The notes under the pieces are model-generated. The model searched no databases, was not told the origin of the DNA, and saw only the letters and a list, made by a program, of their open reading frames with translations. This document shows, in pieces, positions 5,192 to 60,127 of a stretch of DNA of 64,000 nt. The stretch spans positions 20 through 64,019 of the forward strand of contig JAFWEE010000006.1 in the NCBI GenBank assembly GCA_017515795.1, read 5' to 3'. How positions within the stretch are numbered: the first letter of the stretch is position 1; each line of letters opens with the position of its first letter. This DNA is from Bacilli bacterium. Its GTDB lineage: Bacteria; Bacillota_I; Bacilli_A; RF39; UBA660. The position numbers and the translations under genes are program-made.

Positions 5192-5482
5192 CTATTTGCC
5201 TCCTTTACCTCCAAAATCATCATGCGGAAAATTATCATACAATTTTGATTTTTTTAGACTTGCTTGTAAAAAATTTAAACCATCTTTTTCAATAACTTCT
5301 AATTCACAGTCTACACCAGGTTCTCTAGCATTTCCAATTTGAGACACAATAGATAAAACGCTAGTTGCCTTACTAACGTCACTCATTGGACCAATTAAAG
5401 CTTCAAATTTTCCTTTTTCTCTTATTTCATCAAATATTTTTCCTGAATCTATTTCTTCAGGACTTATAATTCTTTCTTTCAT
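5192..5482 (-). CDS. hypothetical protein (96 aa)
   Basis: ORF with SD AGGAGTGA 5 nt before ATG 5482. The track start at 5491 is a GTG inside that SD. No motif recognised. Confidence 0.5.
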   Translation of the reverse strand: MKERIISPEEIDSGKIFDEIREKGKFEALIGPMSDVSKATSVLSIVSQIGNAREPGVDCELEVIEKDGLNFLQASLKKSKLYDNFPHDDFGGKGGK

Positions 5483-5493
5483 ATTTATCACTC

Positions 5494-6147
5494 CTATTTT
5501 TTAGATTTCTTAGTACTTTTAGTATCTATTAATGTATTAAACATAGATATTAGTGCACAAGATATAATTACTCCTCCTAGGATATCACTAACCCAGTGTA
5601 CACCAGAAATAATTCTACCTGCTATTACTAATGTTAATAATGTTAATACAATTACTTTTAAGAATTTAGAATATTTACCAAAGTATTTATCTGATACCAT
5701 ACAAAAACTAATTGCTACACACATTGCAAGTACAGTATGACTTGATGGATAAGAAGCTTCTAATACTTTATCTATAAGTATTGGTCTATAATTTATTATT
5801 ACTTTTTCAAAACCAACATATACTATTGCCATACATGCATATAGAGCTCCAAGAGATAAAATTTCTTTATCAACCTTTAATGGATTCTTTCTTTTTATTA
5901 ATTGAATTAAACCTATAATAGCAAATACTACAACTATTAATAATAAAGCATAACCAAGATATTCAGTTACTTTATATATAGTCATATTCTTTCCTATTAC
6001 ATTTTTAAACCATTTGTTTACTACTGCAAATCCAACTTTTGATTTTTGTGGACCAATAGCTTTAACATTAATAGTTTTAACTAAATATGTATATACCCCA
6101 AATATTATAAAGAGTATACCTGTTAATATAATATTCTTCTTTTTCAT
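5494..6147 (-). CDS. PAP2-family membrane phosphatase
   Basis: Multi-TM protein with acid-phosphatase motifs PSSHT and SGVHWVSDILGG. Confidence 0.8.
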   Translation of the reverse strand: MKKKNIILTGILFIIFGVYTYLVKTINVKAIGPQKSKVGFAVVNKWFKNVIGKNMTIYKVTEYLGYALLLIVVVFAIIGLIQLIKRKNPLKVDKEILSLGALYACMAIVYVGFEKVIINYRPILIDKVLEASYPSSHTVLAMCVAISFCMVSDKYFGKYSKFLKVIVLTLLTLVIAGRIISGVHWVSDILGGVIISCALISMFNTLIDTKSTKKSKK

Positions 6148-8233: not shown

Positions 8234-8264
8234 ATATACCCCCAAAAAGCATAATTATTATAAC

Positions 8265-8290
8265 AAAAAAACTAGTCAAAGACTAGTATT
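8265..8290 (-). terminator. hairpin terminator after tRNA-Pro
   Basis: Stem actagtc / gactagt with loop aaa. The A-run on the plus strand gives UUUUUU after the hairpin on the minus-strand transcript. Confidence 0.5.
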
Positions 8291-8297
8291 TTTTAAA

Positions 8298-8374
8298 TGG
8301 TCGGGAAGACAGGATTTGAACCTGCAACCTCTTGGTCCCAAACCAAGCGCACTGCCAAGTTGTGCTACTTCCCG
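8298..8374 (-). tRNA. tRNA-Pro (anticodon UGG)
   Basis: Reverse complement CGGGAAGTAGCACAACTTGGCAGTGCGCTTGGTTTGGGACCAAGAGGTTGCAGGTTCAAATCCTGTCTTCCCGACCA folds as a cloverleaf. Anticodon loop is TTTGGGA and the 3' CCA is encoded. Confidence 0.93.
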
Positions 8375-8389
8375 ATATAATTTTAAAAA

Positions 8390-8466
<77 letters not shown>

Positions 8467-52154: not shown

Positions 52155-52167
52155 TAGAGAGTGCTAA
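52141..52167 (-). promoter_or_regulatory. CIRCE operator (HrcA binding site) overlapping the hsp20 -35 box
   Basis: Minus strand TTAGCACTC-TCTATTGAC-AAGTGCTAA against consensus TTAGCACTC-N9-GAGTGCTAA (1 mismatch). The spacer contains the -35 TTGACA. It also covers the TAG stop (52164-52166) of the upstream gene. Confidence 0.8.
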
Positions 52168-53228
52168 TTTGTTATATTTAATTTACCTATAATCTTAATA
52201 AGATCTAATGTCATATTTTTTACTAAAGGATCAACATCCTTAACAGATTTTAAAACATCTAATATAAGTCTTTTGTTACTAATAAAATCTATTAAAGTAA
52301 TAACTCCATTCTTCTTTAATACTTGTCCTAAACTATTAACAAATTCTCTTTTAGAATCATTATCATATTTATCTATCCAAGTATTAACTCCTTCATCTAT
52401 TACTTTACTAAATTTACTAATTTCTCTTGTTTTAAAATGATCATAATCTATTTTCCAATTAGTTATTAAATGAGATACACCTGGTTTTTTATCAGAATCT
52501 ACACTTAAGTAATACATATCATGATATAAAAGCATTCCTACAATAGAATTATATGGAACTATATGAATATACTTCTTTAATAAATCATTATATCTTTTTA
52601 AATTTGTTTCTTCTTTTCTTAAACCTTGTCCATCATTACTATATATATTTATTATTCTTTTATATATACTTTTTTTGCATCCTAAAGCAGATACTAATGC
52701 TAGATTACCACCTTTAGAATGACCACCCACAATAATTCTTTTATAGGTATGTTTAAAATATTTATTCAAGTAATTAATAGCATAACTATGTGCTAAAACA
52801 GGATATTCATAAGACATTTTTGCATTTTCTATCCATCCACTTATTACTTTATCTGTTCCCTCAAAAGATACATAAACTAGCCTCTTGTTAATTTCAAATG
52901 TTAAACAAGAAAACTGACATTTATCGGTTATATTATTCTTGTAATTATATAATAGTATATCTTTAAATCTATCTGTATCTTTAGCAGCTATTAAAAGTTT
53001 TAATGATTCTTTAACAGTAATAATATCATTAGTAATAATATTACCTTTAAAATCTAAATATGCTTTAGCAGCATCTTTTAATCTAATTTTATGTTTATTA
53101 TCATTTGATACAATTCCATTAAAATCTACATAAGCAAGTTCTGAAAATATAGCATTATCTATTTCGTTAAATGGTTTATCATCAAATGTATATTTTCCGT
53201 AATAATTTAAATAATCAAATATATTCAT
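52164..53228 (-). CDS. Mbeg1-like (DUF2974) alpha/beta-hydrolase, lipase-like
   Basis: Nucleophile elbow IVGGHSKGGNLA in a 354-aa protein. Confidence 0.65.
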   Translation of the reverse strand: MNIFDYLNYYGKYTFDDKPFNEIDNAIFSELAYVDFNGIVSNDNKHKIRLKDAAKAYLDFKGNIITNDIITVKESLKLLIAAKDTDRFKDILLYNYKNNITDKCQFSCLTFEINKRLVYVSFEGTDKVISGWIENAKMSYEYPVLAHSYAINYLNKYFKHTYKRIIVGGHSKGGNLALVSALGCKKSIYKRIINIYSNDGQGLRKEETNLKRYNDLLKKYIHIVPYNSIVGMLLYHDMYYLSVDSDKKPGVSHLITNWKIDYDHFKTREISKFSKVIDEGVNTWIDKYDNDSKREFVNSLGQVLKKNGVITLIDFISNKRLILDVLKSVKDVDPLVKNMTLDLIKIIGKLNITN

Positions 53229-53236
53229 AATATCAC

Positions 53237-53917
53237 CTATTTCTTATCTATATAACTGCCTAAATAATCAATAAGTTTTTTTGTTTGAGTAAATGGAAAT
53301 AAAAACGAATATTTTTCTTTAGCATTCTTTTGAACATCTTTTATATGTATTTTAAGTTTTTCATACATAACAGTGACATTATTCTCTTTAGCATATTTTC
53401 TAATTTTAATATATAGTTTAGTAGAATAAACAAAGTCTATTATTAGAAAACCTGATAAAATACCTATTACATAAGAAAAAGATATATTTTCATTAAACCA
53501 ATTTACTGCATACATAAGAGGATCATATAAGAAGAAATAATATATAGTTCCTATAAATAACCACATAGCAGAATAATAAGGACATATTATTCCTTTAAAG
53601 TTTAACCAGTTCTTACTATAATCCCATAATCTTACTTTTTGAGATAATGCAAATAAACCTCCAATTAACTCTATTAAAGTCATAACTATACCCATTAATA
53701 ATATAATTACCACTGGATATAAATTTAATCTTGTTAATAGTATATGAAGTATAGTTAATGATAATAAACCAAATCCATATATAGGTAAATATGGGCCAAC
53801 TAAAAAACCAGGATTAACTAATTTGCCATGAAGAATTCTTCTATAAACTAGTTCTAAAATCCAACCAACTACACTCCCTAGGAAAAAAATAAATACTGAT
53901 AATAAATATAAATTCAT
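53237..53917 (-). CDS. membrane protein of the 'putative ABC-transporter type IV' (DUF1113-like) family, paralog A
   Basis: VGWILELVYRRILHGKLVNPGFLVGPYLPIYGFG, paralogous to 59567-60127. Start at ATG 53917 with SD GGGTGG. Confidence 0.6.
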   Translation of the reverse strand: MNLYLLSVFIFFLGSVVGWILELVYRRILHGKLVNPGFLVGPYLPIYGFGLLSLTILHILLTRLNLYPVVIILLMGIVMTLIELIGGLFALSQKVRLWDYSKNWLNFKGIICPYYSAMWLFIGTIYYFFLYDPLMYAVNWFNENISFSYVIGILSGFLIIDFVYSTKLYIKIRKYAKENNVTVMYEKLKIHIKDVQKNAKEKYSFLFPFTQTKKLIDYLGSYIDKK

Positions 53918-53985
53918 ATAACCACCCATTTTATTATAATATAAAAAAAGTGTAATCACTTATGTGATTACATCTTTTTTACATA

Positions 53986-54333
53986 TTAATAATATGATGC
54001 TGTAATTAAAGCTAATACTAAGAAGAATAAGAATATTATAATAAATCCTAATAAAACTGAACTAATTATAATACCTGCTATAGCAAGACCTCTTCCTTCT
54101 TCTCCAGTTTTTTTAATTTGATTTAAACCTACAATTGAAAGTATCAAACCTGGAATAGCACTTAATACTCCAAGAAGAAGTGTTGTTAAAGATAATACAA
54201 ATCCTGTAATAGCTAAAGCATTAGTACCAGTTTTAGTTTCATTGTTTTCTACTTTTTTTACTTCTTTAACATCACATTTTGGACATTTATTATCTTCAAG
54301 CATACTTCCACATTGTCCACAAAACTTTGCCAT
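53986..54333 (-). CDS. zinc-ribbon plus DUF4190-like two-TM membrane protein
   Basis: CGQCG...CPKC ribbon followed by two hydrophobic helices with Gly-rich turns. SD AAGGAGGA. Confidence 0.6.
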   Translation of the reverse strand: MAKFCGQCGSMLEDNKCPKCDVKEVKKVENNETKTGTNALAITGFVLSLTTLLLGVLSAIPGLILSIVGLNQIKKTGEEGRGLAIAGIIISSVLLGFIIIFLFFLVLALITASYY

Positions 54334-54383
54334 AATAGTCCTCCTTAAATATATTTTATCAAATAATAATTATTACTTCAATA

Positions 54384-55184
54384 TTATCTGTAAACCAATC
54401 TTTTAGCAACCTCTTCATATCTTTCAGGAGTTATTTTCTTAAATGTATATAAACCTTTTTCTTTAGTTAACTCAAATTGAATACATTCGTCTTCTATATT
54501 TACTATCCTATGGAATACTAAATCTTTATCTACAATATCTTCAAATGGTATACTCATTAGTTGTGGAAATATATGTATAAAATATGATGCATCTGTAAAA
54601 TGTTTATTTACTTTAGTAGTATCTAATAACTCTCCTACTTCTTTAGCAGCACCATATTGAGAAGGACTCATGATTTTAGTTTCATATTCTGATCTCTTAA
54701 TAAAACGATATCCTAGATCAGGATCCATATATCTAAAATCAAAATCATATTCCTCAAGTCTTACTCCTCTTTTTTTAACATAATACATACCTGTTGGTAA
54801 TATACCTAATTTTACTCTTGGCATATCTCCATACATTGGATCTAATTTCCATCTATTGTTATAATCATCTGTTACTTCAGTATAGAAATGATTTCCAAGA
54901 GAAATAATATTAGTATGTAAATTAGTTAATTCTCTAATTAAAGGAGATATAACTTCATAAGCTCCTGAACGACATATTATAGAAAAATCATCTATATTCT
55001 CTAAATCTATTTTTCTATAAAAAATTGAGTCTTCTAATTTTTTGTCTTCTATTATATCTGCAGCAGACCATTTAGAATCAAAATGAAATAATTCACAAAA
55101 TCTTAAATAAATATATCTCATTTTTTCTAAATCAGATAAATGCTTCTCTTTTAATTCATTATCTAATGTATTAATTAAATCCAT
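54384..55184 (-). CDS. transglutaminase-like (papain-fold Cys-His-Asp) protein
   Basis: IICRSGAYEVISPLIRE...GNHFYTEV...RWKLDPMYG parallels the TGase-core pattern G-C...H-A-W-x-E...W-x-x-D-P. Starts 2 nt after the stop of the kinase-like gene, with SD GGAGGA. Confidence 0.55.
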   Translation of the reverse strand: MDLINTLDNELKEKHLSDLEKMRYIYLRFCELFHFDSKWSAADIIEDKKLEDSIFYRKIDLENIDDFSIICRSGAYEVISPLIRELTNLHTNIISLGNHFYTEVTDDYNNRWKLDPMYGDMPRVKLGILPTGMYYVKKRGVRLEEYDFDFRYMDPDLGYRFIKRSEYETKIMSPSQYGAAKEVGELLDTTKVNKHFTDASYFIHIFPQLMSIPFEDIVDKDLVFHRIVNIEDECIQFELTKEKGLYTFKKITPERYEEVAKRLVYR

Positions 55185-55186
55185 TT

Positions 55187-55942
55187 TTATTCCTCCATAT
55201 TTCTTACATAAGAAGAATAACTATTTATACGTTTTTCATGAAGAGTCTTTCTTCTTATTTCATAAAGCATAGGATTCTTCTTTCTACATACTCTTTCAAA
55301 TTCTTCTTTTAATTCTCTTAAAGTATCCGCATTTATATCTTTACGATATAAAAACTCATGAATATCAACACCTGTATATACTCCTTCATTCCAAGGTTTA
55401 AATCTATATATTACATTTAAAATAGTCTTTAATAATTCTTGTTTATTAAACTTTTCTAAGTCTTCAGGTGTATCCTTTTCTTTAGCCATATTACTTTTAT
55501 CCATATCTATTACATGAAAAGAACCATCTACAAGAATATTCTTTCCATGAATATCATATAAATCTACTCTATTTTCTGTTAAAGATTTAATGTCATCAAA
55601 TAAAATACCTATATTTTTAAATAAAGTATCTATTCTAGTAAATCTACTAACACTTGCTACTTCTATTCCATTTATATATTCATATATATAACCTACAAAC
55701 TTTTTGTCTTGATATACTAAAGTTTTAGGTCCTACAATAGATTCATTTGATGATTTACATAAAGCTTCCATTAGGACTTCTAAATCTTTTCTATTTACTA
55801 TTTTTTGTCCTTCTTCATTATTTTTAAATTTCTTAAAAACATTACCATCTTTACATCTATAACAGTGCGCACAAAAACCACTGCCTATAGGAATAGGAGA
55901 CTTAATAATATCATACATACTATCAATTTGTATTTTTTGCAT
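55187..55942 (-). CDS. atypical protein-kinase-like protein, paralog 3 (251 aa)
   Basis: VFKKFKN (beta3 Lys), hinge GYIYEYINGIE, catalytic loop LYDIHGKNILV (D-x4-N as in APH/choline-kinase-type kinases), HVIDMDKS. Start at ATG 55942 with SD GGTGAT. Confidence 0.6.
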   Translation of the reverse strand: MQKIQIDSMYDIIKSPIPIGSGFCAHCYRCKDGNVFKKFKNNEEGQKIVNRKDLEVLMEALCKSSNESIVGPKTLVYQDKKFVGYIYEYINGIEVASVSRFTRIDTLFKNIGILFDDIKSLTENRVDLYDIHGKNILVDGSFHVIDMDKSNMAKEKDTPEDLEKFNKQELLKTILNVIYRFKPWNEGVYTGVDIHEFLYRKDINADTLRELKEEFERVCRKKNPMLYEIRRKTLHEKRINSYSSYVRNMEE

Positions 55943-56008
55943 ATAAATCACCGTGAAAATATAATACCACAATTATAATATATGTCAAAAAAAGACCTAT
56001 TGGTCTTT

Positions 56009-56311
56009 TTATGCTTCAACTTTTTGCATTACTCCATTTATTTCTTTATAAACTCTTTTACTATTTTTAAGCATCTTGTTTTCTATTTCTTTTCCTAGAT
56101 CAAATCCAAGTAATTCAGATATTCCAAGAAGATAAATAGCTACATCTGCAAGTTCTTCTCCTAAATCATCTTTCTTTTTAAGATAAGCCATATAAGCCTC
56201 TCCTAGTTCACCATAAGCTAAACAGAATTCAAAATTAATATCAGTAGTATTAAATCCATGATTAATCTTATTTTGAATAACCTCTTTTTGTAAAACTTTT
56301 AAGTCTCTCAT
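56009..56311 (-). CDS. MazG-type all-alpha NTP pyrophosphohydrolase (100 aa)
   Basis: LAYGELGEAYMAY...LGEELADVAIYLLGISELLGFDL, with the EExxE/D metal motifs of small MazG-like proteins. 4-nt overlap with the upstream Nudix gene. Confidence 0.7.
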   Translation of the reverse strand: MRDLKVLQKEVIQNKINHGFNTTDINFEFCLAYGELGEAYMAYLKKKDDLGEELADVAIYLLGISELLGFDLGKEIENKMLKNSKRVYKEINGVMQKVEA

Positions 56312-56721
56312 AATAACTCCTTTAATTTATTAACTATTTCTATGTCTGCTCCTAACCACTCTACTGTATCTAATTCTTCTTTAGAAAGCCATTTCATAGC
56401 TTCGTGTTCTAGTTTTTCTTCATCATGATATACAAGTTCCATATGATCATTTAATAAAGTACAAAAATAAGTATGCATAGTTAAATGAAAATCAGGATCT
56501 TTATAATCATATTCTACAGTACATATATAATCATCTACTTTAATATCAGCATTTAATTCTTCTTTTATTTCTCTAACTAGAGCTTCTTCCTTAGTTTCTC
56601 CTTCTTCAGGTTTTCCACCAGGAAATTCCCACATTCCTTTGAAATGTCCATATCCTCTAGCAGTTCCTAGAATTTTGTTATCCTTTTTAATAACTGCTGC
56701 TACTACTTCTACTACTTTCAT
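56308..56721 (-). CDS. Nudix hydrolase, MutT/NudG-like (intact Nudix box)
   Basis: GMWEFPGGKPEEGETKEEALVREIKEELNADI fits GX5EX7REUXEEXGU apart from Gly to Asn. Confidence 0.8.
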   Translation of the reverse strand: MKVVEVVAAVIKKDNKILGTARGYGHFKGMWEFPGGKPEEGETKEEALVREIKEELNADIKVDDYICTVEYDYKDPDFHLTMHTYFCTLLNDHMELVYHDEEKLEHEAMKWLSKEELDTVEWLGADIEIVNKLKELL

Positions 56722-56729
56722 AATTTCTC

Positions 56730-57377
56730 CTATAATGAATAAGGTCTAAATCCATCTTTCTTTTTTTGTGCAGTTAAAGATTTAGTATATCTTTTAGTAA
56801 ATGGATCTCTCGGAATCATTTTTTCTTTTTTAGCAGTCTCTAACGATTTATTAAATCTTTGATTAAATAAAGCTTCAGATTCTTTCATTAATTTAGCTCC
56901 TTTTGTTGGTTTTGAATTAATAAAATTCTTAACAACTCTTTCTTCAGCTAAATCAGAATAAATACCTTTAAATATTATATATGGTTCTTCATCATATTCT
57001 TCTTCACAAGCATCTTCTTCATACTCAACGCCATAATATTCTTCCATTGGATTATGCATAAATACTTCATCTGGATCTAATTCTAATAGGTCTCCTATAA
57101 AATCAAACTCTTTATCACTTAATGCACTTAATGATCTTCTTAATTCTTCTCTATCAGATATAGGATTTCTATCTCTATTACCTAAATTTCTTTCCTTTTC
57201 TTCTTTTACAGAATCAAATACCTCTTTAAGTATTGTTCCATCTTCTTCATATTCATATTGCCATGCTTCTATTACTGAAGTTAATGATTCCATCCCATAA
57301 ATATTTAAACTATCAAAAACGTTTCTTAATTCTTCCCTAGTTAATCCTTTATATGTTAATACATTAATATTATTCAT
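56730..57377 (-). CDS. hypothetical acidic protein (215 aa)
   Basis: E/D-rich with a basic C-terminal tail. No recognisable motif. Wedged between the two Nudix genes with gaps of 15 and 8 nt. Confidence 0.6.
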   Translation of the reverse strand: MNNINVLTYKGLTREELRNVFDSLNIYGMESLTSVIEAWQYEYEEDGTILKEVFDSVKEEKERNLGNRDRNPISDREELRRSLSALSDKEFDFIGDLLELDPDEVFMHNPMEEYYGVEYEEDACEEEYDEEPYIIFKGIYSDLAEERVVKNFINSKPTKGAKLMKESEALFNQRFNKSLETAKKEKMIPRDPFTKRYTKSLTAQKKKDGFRPYSL

Positions 57378-57392
57378 TTTAAACCTCCTATA

Positions 57393-57989
57393 TTAATCAA
57401 TAATACTATTATTTCTTGATTCTTCTAATGCTCTTTTTATTAAGAACTTAGATAAAATAACATCAGCATCTGCTAAATCATAATCTAATAATTCTTCAAT
57501 ACTAACCCATTTATATTCAGAGTGGATATCTAACTTGAATTCTCCGCTTACATAATCACATTCATATATTTTCAGATCTACTATATGACCTGGATATTCA
57601 CATATACTATGAGTTAAATAATCTTTAATATCTACTTTCATCTTAAATATTTCATTAAATGCTCTTTCTAGAGTTTTCTTTTCATCTTCAAGACCTTGTC
57701 TTCTTCCTCCAGGAAATTCCCATCTACCATTTAAATGGTCATTTTTGTTTCTTCTAGCTATTAAACATTTACCATCTTTCATAATTAATGCGCATACAAC
57801 ATCAAGTATCTTTTTGTTATCTACTACATTAGTTACTTCAAATGGAAGACCATTTTTCTTAACTACTTGTTTTAAGAATAAGTTAATAGCAGAACTCATA
57901 GATAAGCCAAGATCTGTTAAAACTAAAGTAGCATCTTTTTTAACATCACTATCAACTTGTATGTTAATAGCACTTGTTTTATTAGCCAT
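57393..57989 (-). CDS. RelB/DinJ-type ribbon-helix-helix domain fused to a degenerate Nudix domain (198 aa)
   Basis: aa 6-52 SAINIQVDSDVKKDATLVLTDLGLSMSSAINLFLKQVVKKNGLPFEV (RelB/DinJ pattern). aa ~62-185 MutT-like (GRWEFPGG...) with box GRRQGLEDEKKTLERAFNEIFKM, which has lost two box Glu and the Gly. SD GAGGTG. Confidence 0.7.
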   Translation of the reverse strand: MANKTSAINIQVDSDVKKDATLVLTDLGLSMSSAINLFLKQVVKKNGLPFEVTNVVDNKKILDVVCALIMKDGKCLIARRNKNDHLNGRWEFPGGRRQGLEDEKKTLERAFNEIFKMKVDIKDYLTHSICEYPGHIVDLKIYECDYVSGEFKLDIHSEYKWVSIEELLDYDLADADVILSKFLIKRALEESRNNSIID

Positions 57990-58008: not shown

Positions 58009-58037
58009 ATAATAACACTATAAAAAATGCTTGTCAA
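58009..58037 (-). promoter_or_regulatory. sigma-A promoter of the RHH-Nudix operon
   Basis: Minus strand: TTGACA (58037-58032), 17 nt, TATTAT (58014-58009), about 20 nt upstream of the start codon region. Confidence 0.6.
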
Positions 58038-58042
58038 TAGAA

Positions 58043-58071
58043 AACTACAAAAATACTACAATTTTACTACA
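58043..58071 (-). promoter_or_regulatory. three direct heptamer repeats at 11-bp phasing, candidate operator
   Basis: Minus strand TGTAGTA-aaat-TGTAGTA-tttt-TGTAGTT, at 58071-58065, 58060-58054 and 58049-58043. The last ends 5 nt upstream of the -35 box. Confidence 0.45.
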
Positions 58072-58098
58072 TCGCGTTTTTATATAAAAAAAGAAGCA

Positions 58099-59334
58099 TT
58101 AAGCTTCTTTTTTTGGATCTTCTTTAGGCTTCATTGTATATTTTTTTGATTCTGGACCACAATCACTTTTTGTTAAATCAACTGTAGTCATTATACGAAG
58201 CATTCTTTCTCGTCTCATTTGATTTAACTTTCTTTCTCTTTCTTCCATAAATAATTCAGAATCAATAGCACTCTTAATATAATTCTTAGATTCTTCTTCT
58301 ACTTTCCATAAATCAGTAATATAAGTTTCATTAGAAGTATCCATACATAATAAGTCACTTTCCATTCTTTTTTTCTTATCATATCTAAAGAAATATGGGT
58401 AATAAAATAACTTACTTACTATATTTCCTTCTTTATCTAAATATACTGCTGTAGTTATTTTATCCTCTTTATCTAATCTAATTGTAGTAGTTCCTATTAA
58501 TAAATTATTTTCTTCTAGAGTTTTTTTAATTCCTATCCAAGCTTCATCTAATAAGACTCCCATATATGGAGTTTTAATAACAGGATAAGTATAGTCAATT
58601 ATATTATCAAATTCTAAATCATTTACAAAATCACCTTTTGAAACACTATATAGTCTTCCATAGCATACTCCAAGTTCACCATCACCTAATTGTAATTTTT
58701 TATATGTGGCATATTCATTATCATCTACTTTTTTACTGGTACTATCTGCACTAGTAAATTCATGTTTTTCCACATATTTTTTTCCATTAAATTTATAATG
58801 AGCATATTTAGGAATCCATATACTACCTAAATTAATAATAACATCATCTTTTGTAACAAATATATTATCAGGACTTATTTCTACAAAATCATCAAGATCT
58901 TGAAAGTTTAGATAAAAATTATTTGATGTATCTAAATCTAATAATAGTTCTCCTTTATCATCAAATATAAGTTTTCCACATATTTCATTTAATTCATCTT
59001 CATCTTCTGATTCATGAAAGTTTTGCATATAATACTCTATATATTTTTTATCTTCATATTTAGCTAATTTAAATGCATAAGAAATATCCTGAGATTCCAT
59101 ATCAAATTTTATTCCTATTGATTCAAAATATGGTAAAACTAAACCAAATATTTCTTTTTCTAATAATAATCTTCTTATTTTTTTATTAGTTTCATCAATA
59201 TATCCTTGAATATAACCTACTTCTCTTTGATTATGATCCTTTGTAATTGAGTTCATTCTTACTTCATAATAATTACGTGTACTTTTTAGTATTTCTAATT
59301 CTTCATCATAGTTTCTTTTTTTAATAATTGCCAT
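58099..59334 (-). CDS. hypothetical protein (411 aa)
   Basis: Start at ATG 59334 (MAIIKKRNY) with SD AGGAGG 6 nt upstream. The longer track ORF (to 59472) would run through the tRNA-His gene and its terminator. Confidence 0.65.
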   Translation of the reverse strand: MAIIKKRNYDEELEILKSTRNYYEVRMNSITKDHNQREVGYIQGYIDETNKKIRRLLLEKEIFGLVLPYFESIGIKFDMESQDISYAFKLAKYEDKKYIEYYMQNFHESEDEDELNEICGKLIFDDKGELLLDLDTSNNFYLNFQDLDDFVEISPDNIFVTKDDVIINLGSIWIPKYAHYKFNGKKYVEKHEFTSADSTSKKVDDNEYATYKKLQLGDGELGVCYGRLYSVSKGDFVNDLEFDNIIDYTYPVIKTPYMGVLLDEAWIGIKKTLEENNLLIGTTTIRLDKEDKITTAVYLDKEGNIVSKLFYYPYFFRYDKKKRMESDLLCMDTSNETYITDLWKVEEESKNYIKSAIDSELFMEERERKLNQMRRERMLRIMTTVDLTKSDCGPESKKYTMKPKEDPKKEA

Positions 59335-59373
59335 ATAAACCTCCTGAAATATAAAACTATTATAACATAATAA

Positions 59374-59406
59374 TAAAAAAACGAACTTAAAAAAGTTCGA
59401 TTTTTT
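59374..59406 (-). terminator. hairpin terminator after tRNA-His
   Basis: Stem cgaactt / aagttcg with loop aaaa. The A-run on the plus strand gives a U7 tail on the minus transcript. Confidence 0.55.
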
Positions 59407-59410
59407 CAAA

Positions 59411-59487
59411 TGGGGCGAAATAAGGGAGTCGAACCCTTGCATAATAGAGCCACAATCTACCGTGTTAACCACTTCACCAATTCCGCC
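59411..59487 (-). tRNA. tRNA-His (anticodon GUG) with encoded G-1 and CCA
   Basis: Reverse complement GGCGGAATTGGTGAAGTGGTTAACACGGTAGATTGTGGCTCTATTATGCAAGGGTTCGACTCCCTTATTTCGCCCCA. Anticodon loop TTGTGGC. The extra 5' G pairs with the discriminator C. Confidence 0.9.
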
Positions 59488-59566: not shown

Positions 59567-60127
59567 ATGAAAAAATTCAATATAAATAAATTTAATGAAT
59601 ATATACTACTATTCTTTGTTTCATGTTTTATCGGATGGGCTTGGGAAGTTCTATGGGAATTTCTTAAAGAAGGTAATCTAATAAATAGTGGTACTATGAG
59701 AGGACCATGGTTACCAATATATGGAACAGGAACTGTATTAATATATTTATTATTATATGAATATAAAGAAAAGAAATGGATGATATTTATAGGATCCTTT
59801 GTTATATGTACTATATCAGAATACTTAACAAGTTTATACCTAGAATATACATATGGCATGTCTTGGTGGAATTATACTGATAAACCATTTAATATTAACG
59901 GAAGAATTTGTTTACCATATTCAATAGTATTTGGTTTTACAGGATTAATAGTTATATATTTAATAGTTCCATTTATAAAAAAATTTATAGAAAAACATAA
60001 TAAAAAAGTATTATTTGTTGTATGTTTAATACTTTTATCAATATTCACATTTGATTTTGTATTTTCTACTATTAACCCTTATGTATCTAAAAAGATTCAA
60101 GTAATTAATATGGATAAATTTAAATAA
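59567..60127 (+). CDS. membrane protein of the 'putative ABC-transporter type IV' (DUF1113-like) family, paralog B
   Basis: IGWAWEVLWEFLKEGNLINSGTMRGPWLPIYGTG matches paralog A at 53237-53917. SD AAGGTGG, with an extended -10 TGATATAAT about 25 nt upstream. Confidence 0.7.
   Translation: MKKFNINKFNEYILLFFVSCFIGWAWEVLWEFLKEGNLINSGTMRGPWLPIYGTGTVLIYLLLYEYKEKKWMIFIGSFVICTISEYLTSLYLEYTYGMSWWNYTDKPFNINGRICLPYSIVFGFTGLIVIYLIVPFIKKFIEKHNKKVLFVVCLILLSIFTFDFVFSTINPYVSKKIQVINMDKFK

Follow-up and report, generated by a model that had tools for sequence, protein, structure and literature searches.

Organization of the operon

The DNA analysed here is a stretch of 64,000 nucleotides (nt) from contig JAFWEE010000006.1 of a Bacilli bacterium (GenBank assembly GCA_017515795.1), referred to below as the window. 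It holds a minus-strand operon headed by a gene in which a RelB/DinJ-type ribbon-helix-helix (RHH) domain is fused to a Nudix domain with a degenerate catalytic box. An earlier note on this DNA, made from the letters alone, had listed four open reading frames (ORFs), and all of them were found again, on the minus strand, at the same coordinates and with the same spacings, which are, in gene order, a 15-nt gap, an 8-nt gap and then a 4-nt ATGA overlap. The operon and its signals are as follows.

57393-57989, minus strand: RelB/DinJ-Nudix fusion gene, 198 amino acids (aa)
56730-57377, minus strand: gene of an acidic protein, denoted as X, 215 aa
56308-56721, minus strand: free Nudix gene, 137 aa
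56009-56311, minus strand: MazG-like gene, 100 aa
58009..58037, minus strand: sigma-70-type promoter, TTGACA - 17 nt - TATTAT with an extended -10 TG, matching 11/12 of the consensus
58045..58071, minus strand: putative operator of three direct TGTAG(T) repeats, TGTAGTAAAAT TGTAGTATTTT TGTAG
58086..58114, minus strand: intrinsic terminator of the upstream gene (12-bp stem and U-run), the 5' boundary of the operon
55986..56013, minus strand: intrinsic terminator overlapping the stop codon of the MazG-like gene, the 3' boundary of the operon

The minimum free energy of the upstream terminator was -13.0 kcal/mol (z = -4.9 against shuffled sequences) and that of the downstream terminator was -11.4 kcal/mol (z = -4.3). 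After the latter, the next gene has a separate promoter at 55988..55961. With their own promoter and terminators, the four genes are predicted to be a discrete transcription unit. In GenBank, the fusion is MBR2603646.1, which carries the NCBI label RelB/DinJ antitoxin, while MBR2603645.1 is a hypothetical protein and MBR2603644.1 a (deoxy)nucleoside triphosphate pyrophosphohydrolase; no NCBI record of the MazG-like gene was present in the collection searched. The earlier note had seen no RelE/YafQ/ParE-like toxin ORF, and our ORF and profile searches agreed, as no such ORF of at least 25 aa was detected in or beside the operon or in about 55 related loci.

The fusion protein and its distribution

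Both halves of the fusion pass curated profile cut-offs, so the two-domain assignment proposed earlier holds. The RelB family PF04221 matched residues 6-62 with 48.1 bits (cut-off 22.4) and the RelB_DinJ model TIGR02384 scored 64.4 bits (cut-off 45.65). For the second half, NUDIX_4 (PF14815) matched residues 65-176 with 50.1 bits (cut-off 35), and the NudG model NF007834 scored 82.6 bits, which is below its own cut-off. When the PDB was searched by sequence, the fusion matched DinJ (9lew, 29.7 bits) and the E. coli NudG/CTP pyrophosphohydrolase (2rrk, 62.6 bits). The parts of the protein are placed as follows.

57816..57989, minus strand: RelB/DinJ RHH domain, residues 1-58, with the β-strand SAINIQVD
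57393..57815, minus strand: NudG/MutT-type Nudix fold (PF14815), residues 59-198
57639..57707, minus strand: degenerate Nudix box, residues 95-117, GRRQGLEDEKKTLERAFNEIFKM, with E16 and E20 lost

A search of 5.8 billion proteins returned 1073 clusters of the fusion. RelB_DinJ and NUDIX thus occur in one polypeptide well beyond this assembly, and the best 120 of the 1073 clusters share 83-100% identity, are 193-204 aa long and all carry RelB and Nudix. In a library clustered at 50% identity, a single entry (P0121) was a full-length fusion, and the remaining matches were fragments, free Nudix proteins, Nudix domains fused otherwise and free DinJ proteins. The fusion was further found in 24 species-level genome loci at 73-89% identity. 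These come from rumen, rabbit and human gut metagenome-assembled genomes (MAGs) labelled Bacilli, Erysipelotrichaceae or Mollicutes, and from Clostridium sp. CAG:433. Judging from this distribution, the fusion is confined to the Clostridium sp. CAG:433 group, a single lineage of Bacilli from gut and rumen that has not been cultured. The exact protein of the window is present on 23 contigs. None of the phage, plasmid and IMG/VR collections searched contained the fusion, and IMG/VR scans using the operator and the DinJ relatives yielded no fusion and no close DinJ. One phage/plasmid match (H3) that seemed to span the domain junction was rejected, because it is a plain 104-aa DinJ. In addition, a 327-aa ORF joining X, RelB and Nudix (P0322) lies on a single 2.4-kb ENA contig. 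The CAG:433-like lineage has the gene order X-fusion, from which this ORF probably arose by read-through or a sequencing error, and it shows that artefacts of this kind exist at the locus.

Selection on the operon was estimated as the pairwise ratio of nonsynonymous to synonymous substitution rates (dN/dS) between close loci. The ratio was 0.03-0.09 for the whole fusion protein, 0.10-0.33 for the MazG-like protein, 0.08-0.56 for the free Nudix and 0.41-1.13 for X, and the RHH domain retains 87.5% mean identity across loci. By these estimates, few genes of the locus evolve as slowly as the fusion, and both of its domains are under strong purifying selection. That it could stem from an assembly error or a frameshift, or be a pseudogene in decay, was rejected with near certainty, given more than 1000 clusters from independent assemblies, the 24 genome loci and the purifying selection. 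The architecture had not been recognised as a described one in the earlier note; likewise, our literature searches, which also covered the combination of MazG, antitoxin and Nudix, did not turn up any account of a RelB/DinJ-Nudix or RHH-Nudix protein.

The degenerate Nudix box

The box of the fusion reads G95-x5-E101-x7-R109-A110-F-N-E113-I114-F-K116-M. Compared with the canonical box, E16 is replaced by Ala, E20 by Ile and G22 by Lys, as the earlier note had read it when it described two of the three box glutamates and the glycine as lost. The glutamate losses turned out to be fixed in 122 homologs. Position 110 (box E16) is A, S, T or V and position 114 (box E20) is V, L, I or F in these proteins, neither ever being Glu, and the positions neighbouring 110 and 114 vary freely. 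In the most divergent ortholog (L023), R109 and E113 are lost as well and the rest of the domain is nearly identical. The nearest free-standing relatives of the fused domain, at 46-53% identity, all keep RE(I/L)xEE. Outside the box, the fused domain retains the motifs WEFPGG, HSEYKWV and DYDLADAD, which are common to active NudG-like enzymes. By analogy with MutT, DYDLADAD would cover the base-recognition region, and the conservation of the three motifs fits a nucleotide pocket that has been kept. Based on the fixed losses, the fused Nudix domain is very probably a non-catalytic pseudo-enzyme.

The fused domain shares only about 30% identity with the free Nudix of the same operon. For this reason it is not a recent local duplicate of its neighbour, an origin that we considered and rejected. 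The free Nudix had been called clearly paralogous to the fused domain, which does not apply in the sense of a recent duplication, as the identity is about 30% versus 46-53% to other free-standing Nudix proteins. The fused domain also matched the PADLOC model PDC-S07 with 118.1 bits.

The closest active relatives of the fused Nudix occur as Nudix-SRA-HNH, HNH-Nudix, HIT-Nudix and HAD-like-Nudix fusions (P0128, P0143, P0134 and P0136), and one relative (L025, 6001-7514) adjoins a reverse transcriptase gene (PF00078) and a DUF2779 gene. The subfamily appears to be a promiscuous module that is often found in restriction- or defence-like settings. No RHH domain was evident in N-terminally extended Nudix relatives when these were inspected by eye.

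Operator and promoter

The three operator repeats are spaced exactly 11 nt apart and the array ends 7 nt before the -35 box. This TGTAG triplet is unique in the window, where 0.01 matches are expected by chance. Many of the 57 operator loci that we collected were chosen by the motif itself. Since the other genuine matches were selected by pattern, operator conservation was assessed only in the 24 genome loci retrieved by protein, which form the unbiased set. In 22 of these 24 loci the triplet occurs once and always at the head of the operon; of the two others, one has a single-mismatch triplet and one (L014) has no triplet. Two loci (L022 and L024) carry an extra upstream X gene that precedes the fusion gene, and the triplet stands before this extra gene. 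The TGTAG columns are at least 90% conserved and the spacers and flanks drift (53 distinct sequences). The distance from operator to -35 box is 7 nt in 52/57 loci, and the promoter is also conserved across loci. Scanning of metagenomes with the operator gave 120 matches, most of which were unrelated 11-nt microsatellites.

Repressors of the Arc and omega type classically place one RHH dimer on each repeat, on one face of the helix. The earlier note had placed an RHH repressor at its own promoter, and this proposal gains support from the conserved array of three TGTAG repeats and the promoter within 58009-58071. We thus regard the fusion as a highly likely DNA-binding autoregulator acting at the TGTAG operator.

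The regulator and its target can also be found apart. In two loci (L061, 1930-2343, and L122, 1914-2326), the operator and promoter stand directly before a MazG-like gene with no fusion within about 2 kb, so the repressor would either act in trans or have been lost. Conversely, L014 (5989-6579) has a fusion gene of 87% identity without the operator and without MazG or X downstream. Such separability is usual for a transcription factor but not for a toxin-antitoxin (TA) pair. As identified by eye, a glycosyltransferase-like gene comes after the MazG-like gene in L061 and L122, and the fusion gene of L014 comes after a thioredoxin-like gene.

Relation to DinJ-YafQ modules

The same operator and promoter were found at the head of a DinJ-YafQ pair on a human gut metagenome contig (ORSI01004404; L094, 7362-8019, operator on the plus strand). 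As in the fusion operon, this cassette consists of three TGTAG repeats and 7 nt to TTGACA. It is followed by a plain DinJ (RelB, 51.2 bits) and then by a YafQ toxin (98.3 bits); the pair adjoins a gene of a Fic-domain protein. Free DinJ relatives share 56-69% identity with the RHH domain of the fusion, including an identical β-strand TSAIN(I/V)QVDS, and those of L094, P0193 and P0216 have the usual tail of about 40 aa where the fusion has its Nudix domain. Considering that L094 shares the operator and promoter, the fusion would have inherited its promoter, its operator and its DNA-reading head from a DinJ-YafQ module. A TA-derived origin had been offered as an alternative in the earlier note, and it now has in its favour a cassette shared with DinJ-YafQ, on one contig. 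Plasmid DinJ homologs were only 37-40% identical and too distant for operator comparison.

A similar array was present on a viral contig (L030, 2869-3050, IMG/VR UViG_3300009772_000127, identical to L078), where three TGTAGTA repeats at 11-nt spacing sit between a TTGACA -35 box and the ribosome-binding site of a gene for a 45-aa CopG/Arc-type RHH protein. This protein matched RHH_1 with 22.1 bits (cut-off 20.5) and its β-strand reads ALNIKIP, compared with AINIQVD in the fusion. From these features, we regard it as a separate case of an RHH gene preceded by a comparable repeat array.

Enzymatic genes of the operon

Gene content was tallied over about 55 operator-headed loci, to which the 24 loci of the genome set can be compared. 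In 23/24 genome loci the operon has a MazG-like gene behind the fusion, mostly right next to it. The MazG-like protein of the window scores just below the Pfam cut-offs (PF12643 MazG-like, 25.3 bits with a cut-off of 27; PF03819, 17 bits with a cut-off of 22), and the ortholog in L061 just above (PF03819, 22.6 bits). The window protein also matched the PHROG pyrophosphatase family phrog_3301 with 41.6 bits and gave weak PDB matches to 1vmg, 4qgp, MazZ (7ody) and DCTPP1. The window protein and its orthologs in the 23 genome loci all carry the motifs E34xxE37 and E52E53xxD56 without variation. Thus, the 100-aa protein is predicted to be a MazG-like all-α NTP pyrophosphohydrolase. Its identification in the earlier note as a MazG-type pyrophosphohydrolase is strengthened by the invariant motifs and the PHROG match, with the reservation that the window protein itself stays just under the Pfam cut-off.

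The free Nudix matched PF00293 with 66.1 bits and also the NudG and MutT models. Its box, G-x5-E-x7-REIKEELNA, keeps all catalytic glutamates and is intact, as the REIKEEL motif had already indicated. It also matched PADLOC PDC-S07 (149.7 bits), a single-gene candidate for which we found no functional validation in the literature. The free Nudix gene is present in about 17/55 loci at two different positions, and it is therefore optional cargo. A dCMP-deaminase-type domain (PF00383) occurs in six operons as the last gene, as in L005 (6689-7276) and L021 (7736-8248), and is fused to the C-terminus of X in L023 (986-1972). These deaminases matched the ComEB and anti-phage dCTP deaminase models below cut-off, the latter with 60-82 bits against a cut-off of 400. 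In L021, a truncated extra Nudix ORF (8245-8466) follows the deaminase and a split deaminase-like gene lies upstream (5429-5931).

The order fusion-X-Nudix-MazG was seen only in the window among the roughly 55 loci, and over 20 independent contigs from the same organism repeat it. The neighbourhood comparison therefore does not bear out the four-gene cluster as a unit, as it had been presented earlier; instead, the conserved core, as far as it can be read from gene content, is the fusion, the MazG-like gene and X, with the free Nudix and the deaminase as variable additions. As to the nucleotide-pool module proposed in the earlier note, the deaminase cargo points to cytosine deoxynucleotides more than to generic sanitising. 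These are favoured because the Nudix proteins resemble NudG and because of the deaminase cargo. In the CAG:433-like lineage (L024, 6978-7586, and about 15 metagenome loci), a conserved 203-aa gene without an NCBIfam match stands 13-67 nt after X or MazG and may be a further member of the operon.

The X protein family

The X protein of the window is acidic (isoelectric point 4.76) and mostly helical, and the modules EELxxFFxKYxxxEL and LsxKELxFL recur in its family. It had no match in Pfam, NCBIfam, PHROGs, PADLOC or the PDB, and a profile search of X alignments against the PDB gave nothing meaningful. Alignments of the window-type X and of the X found after MazG could be joined by hhalign with 94.3% probability (E = 1e-7). 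X is present in nearly all of the operator-headed loci, usually after the MazG-like gene, sometimes also before the fusion, and it is sometimes internally duplicated. While the window X retrieved only its own cluster from the 5.8 billion proteins, a profile search gave 161 clusters, none with a Pfam domain except the X-fusion read-through P0322. The only source name among these relatives was Clostridium sp. CAG:433, with a protein labelled "unknown". An AlphaFold2 model of X from the single sequence was unusable, with a mean predicted local distance difference test score (pLDDT) of 38. The description of an acidic protein without a recognisable domain therefore stands as to the lack of any family match, and X is no isolated orphan, as its family is near-ubiquitous in these operons. 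From alignments and substitution rates, X seems to be a hypervariable, lineage-specific family that evolves almost neutrally though its presence is conserved.

Genomic surroundings

A tRNA-His gene lies upstream of the operon (59411-59486, minus strand). The listed 457-aa ORF at 58099-59472 reads through this tRNA gene; the real ORF has about 411 aa with a Met start at 59334 (58099-59334, minus strand) and had no family match. In the related locus L003, tRNA-His stands directly before the operator, and the ORF of about 411 aa is thus an insertion in the window. On the other side, three genes (53986-55972, minus strand) are inserted between the MazG-like gene and the conserved downstream genes when compared with L002-L004. 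They encode a protein of about 251 aa with a kinase-like HGKNILVD...IDMD motif and no family match, a 266-aa protein with a weak match to PADLOC LmuA (E = 5e-4) and a 115-aa membrane protein with a zinc ribbon and DUF4190. With insertions on both sides of the operon, the window locus is, by this comparison, a variable hotspot adjoining tRNA-His. The variable region is flanked by paralogous CmpB-like membrane proteins (PF06541, ABC_trans_CmpB; 59567-60127, plus strand, and 53237-53959, minus strand), and a gene with an Mbeg1-like lipase fold (PF11187) lies at 52164-53228, after the CmpB-like gene. Among 144 flanking ORFs from 18 loci, most were housekeeping genes and a few matched Abi_2/AbiD, HamA or YhcG. 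Judged by these matches, the flanks are no consistent defence island.

Discussion

Based on these observations, we propose that the fusion represses its own operon of nucleotide hydrolases and that this control responds to a pyrimidine (deoxy)nucleotide, which the pseudo-Nudix domain would sense. In the proposed mechanism, RHH dimers would line up along one face of the helix by binding the three repeats directly before the -35 box, and the strong promoter would thereby be kept repressed. The pseudo-Nudix, which takes the place of the toxin-binding tail of the ancestral antitoxin, would serve as the effector domain. On binding a nucleotide, which it would leave unhydrolysed, it would alter how cooperatively the dimers act, and the operon would be induced. 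The likely ligand would be a pyrimidine (deoxy)nucleoside triphosphate, for example dCTP, CTP or a modified dCTP, which we propose because of the NudG ancestry of the domain and the cargo genes. The enzymes would then hydrolyse (modified) dCTP to dCMP, which in operons with the deaminase would be turned further into dUMP, so that the outcome would be the control or cleaning of the pyrimidine deoxynucleotide pool. That the pseudo-Nudix is a nucleotide sensor seems to us evenly balanced between true and false, and we would put the chances of the whole chain from operator to pool at about even as well.

Several points count against this proposal. The architecture, the dead box, the operator and promoter, the operon, the conserved partners and, through one example, the TA ancestry are established at the level of the sequence, and every step of the mechanism is our inference from them. 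The AlphaFold2 model of the fusion, made with an alignment of 27 sequences, was of low confidence (pLDDT 58); its RHH part fell below 50, which is to be expected when an obligate dimer is modelled as a single chain. The repeat centres at about -45, -56 and -67 lie upstream of the -35 box, a position also compatible with activation, against which stands a promoter that is already near consensus. House-cleaning gives no obvious reason for a conserved, near-neutral X or for variable cargo. Moreover, the TA ancestry of the regulatory cassette has been seen on a single contig (L094), the only such example found; the relatives of the fused Nudix show defence-like architectures (Nudix-SRA-HNH, HNH-Nudix and the reverse transcriptase neighbour); and the free Nudix matches the PADLOC candidate PDC-S07.

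In an alternative explanation, the operon would have a TA-like or anti-phage function and act by depleting nucleotides. Conditional toxicity would come from the MazG-like enzyme, alone or together with the Nudix and the deaminase, through the draining of dCTP or other dNTPs, the fusion would be a labile antitoxin-like repressor, a direct inhibitor or both, and X would be the component that interacts with phage. The regulatory cassette descends directly from DinJ-YafQ, and the MazG-like gene sits downstream of the fusion in all but one of the genome loci, mostly adjacent, at the position of the toxin. The arms-race-like dN/dS, duplications and internal repeats of X would suit this explanation, as would the modular cargo, the matches of the deaminases to the anti-phage dCTP deaminase model (well below cut-off), those of both Nudix proteins to PDC-S07, the Nudix relatives fused to SRA-HNH or HNH or adjoining a reverse transcriptase gene, and the variable hotspot next to tRNA-His. 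However, the dN/dS of the fusion is unlike that of typical antitoxins, the fusion and the MazG-like gene are often separated by other genes, and operator-MazG without the fusion in cis (L061 and L122) exists as well as the fusion without MazG (L014). Nor did the phage, plasmid and IMG/VR collections searched contain the fusion; the flanking genes are mostly housekeeping genes, and PDC-S07 is itself no more than a candidate family. We consider a depletion module rather unlikely. In its most elaborate form, DinJ-YafQ would have given rise to a tripartite conflict system not recognised before, with the fusion as a labile repressor-sensor of a nucleotide or nucleotide-derived signal, an X that recognises phage components and a MazG-centred set, optionally joined by the NudG-like Nudix and the dCMP/dCTP deaminase, that depletes or detoxifies cytosine deoxynucleotides on infection. 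We hold this form to be doubtful; if true, an antitoxin that once neutralised a protein toxin would have been turned into one that gates a metabolic effector via a pseudo-enzyme.

Two further explanations concern the pseudo-Nudix itself. The fusion could be a repressor in which this domain serves for oligomerisation or for docking of a protein such as MazG or X, with conditional cooperativity mediated by the protein partner. In favour of this, the domain stands precisely in place of the toxin-binding tail of DinJ, the strongest co-conserved partners are indeed proteins, namely MazG-like and X, and the residual box residues decay further in L023. On the other hand, WEFPGG, HSEYKWV and DYDLADAD are kept outside the catalytic box, around the base-recognition site by the MutT analogy, X evolves too fast for stable docking on an almost invariant surface, and the L014 fusion exists without MazG or X. 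These objections make docking improbable to us. Alternatively, the domain could still be active through non-canonical residues, for example E101-D102-E103, and make the fusion a bifunctional enzyme-repressor like BirA or PutA. G95, E101, R109 and E113 are kept in most members and the acidic triplet is invariant, but in 122/122 homologs small or hydrophobic residues stand in place of two of the three metal-binding or catalytic glutamates, and L023 lacks R109 and E113. In NrtR, perturbed signatures accompany the loss of activity, and restoration of the signature raised the rate 600-fold (PMC2330246). A remaining activity is thus very improbable, and an autorepressor with a nucleotide-sensing pseudo-Nudix is the explanation that we prefer.

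The closest functional parallel is NrtR, in which Nudix domains with perturbed signatures are the effector domains of repressors (Rodionov et al. 2008; PMC2330246). NrtR proteins, including BtAraR (PMC4666351), and the fusion both join a perturbed Nudix to a DNA-binding domain and are encoded beside the metabolic genes they control or are proposed to control. NrtR is defined by an N-terminal Nudix-like domain, most like ADP-ribose pyrophosphatases, and a C-terminal winged helix-turn-helix (PMC2330246), whereas the fusion has the reverse order, with the RHH at the N-terminus and the Nudix at the C-terminus. Its DNA-binding domain is a RelB/DinJ RHH without any winged helix-turn-helix profile match, and its Nudix belongs to the NudG/MutT branch (NUDIX_4). 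The operators are three direct repeats in the fusion and a palindrome in NrtR, and the cargo consists of dNTP hydrolases in the former and of NAD or sugar genes in the latter. By this analogy, the fusion looks like an independent invention of the NrtR logic.

DinJ-YafQ modules share with the fusion operon an RHH domain encoded by the first gene and, in L094, the promoter with three TGTAG repeats. The fusion differs in that a pseudo-enzyme domain replaces the toxin-binding tail, no YafQ/RelE/ParE toxin is present, the downstream genes are nucleotide-metabolising and the protein evolves very slowly. The fusion belongs to the RelB/DinJ superfamily by its N-terminal domain only, and the label antitoxin is not justified, as the fusion lacks both the tail and the toxin. 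Among RHH repressors, omega (of omega-epsilon-zeta, pSM19035), Arc, MetJ and CopG bind cooperatively, with one dimer per short non-palindromic repeat. The fusion operator resembles theirs in having phased repeats next to or over the -35 box and differs in its own repeat sequence and 11-nt period; to our knowledge, none of these four proteins carries a Nudix domain. E. coli mazE-mazF-mazG, reportedly described by Gross et al. in 2006, is said to have MazG co-transcribed behind a TA-type antitoxin-repressor. Unlike mazEFG, the operon of the window has no MazF-like toxin, its MazG is a single domain of 100 aa, and the antitoxin part is RelB/DinJ fused to a pseudo-Nudix. Nucleotide-depletion defence by anti-phage dCTP deaminase and dGTPase was reportedly described by Tal et al. 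in 2022. In likeness to it, the MazG-like protein, the NudG-like Nudix and the dCMP/dCTP-deaminase-like domain could lower dCTP, but the deaminases score far below their cut-off, there is no kinase-like domain and the context is no consistent defence island.

Taken all together, the fusion is probably a nucleotide-sensing switch that has not been described before. It would be a clean natural case of TA exaptation, in which the operator, the promoter and the DNA-binding domain stayed nearly unchanged and the tail and toxin were swapped for a pseudo-enzyme and enzymes. The convergence with NrtR would support Nudix pseudo-enzymes as a general route to nucleotide-responsive regulators. The annotation "type II TA antitoxin" misleads for more than 1000 database clusters and inflates the TA counts in gut and rumen MAGs. 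The X family is a striking component, as its presence is conserved and its evolution almost neutral. For an abundant uncultured gut lineage with small genomes, the locus offers a testable system made up of a regulator and a 27-bp operator, for which the candidate ligands are few.

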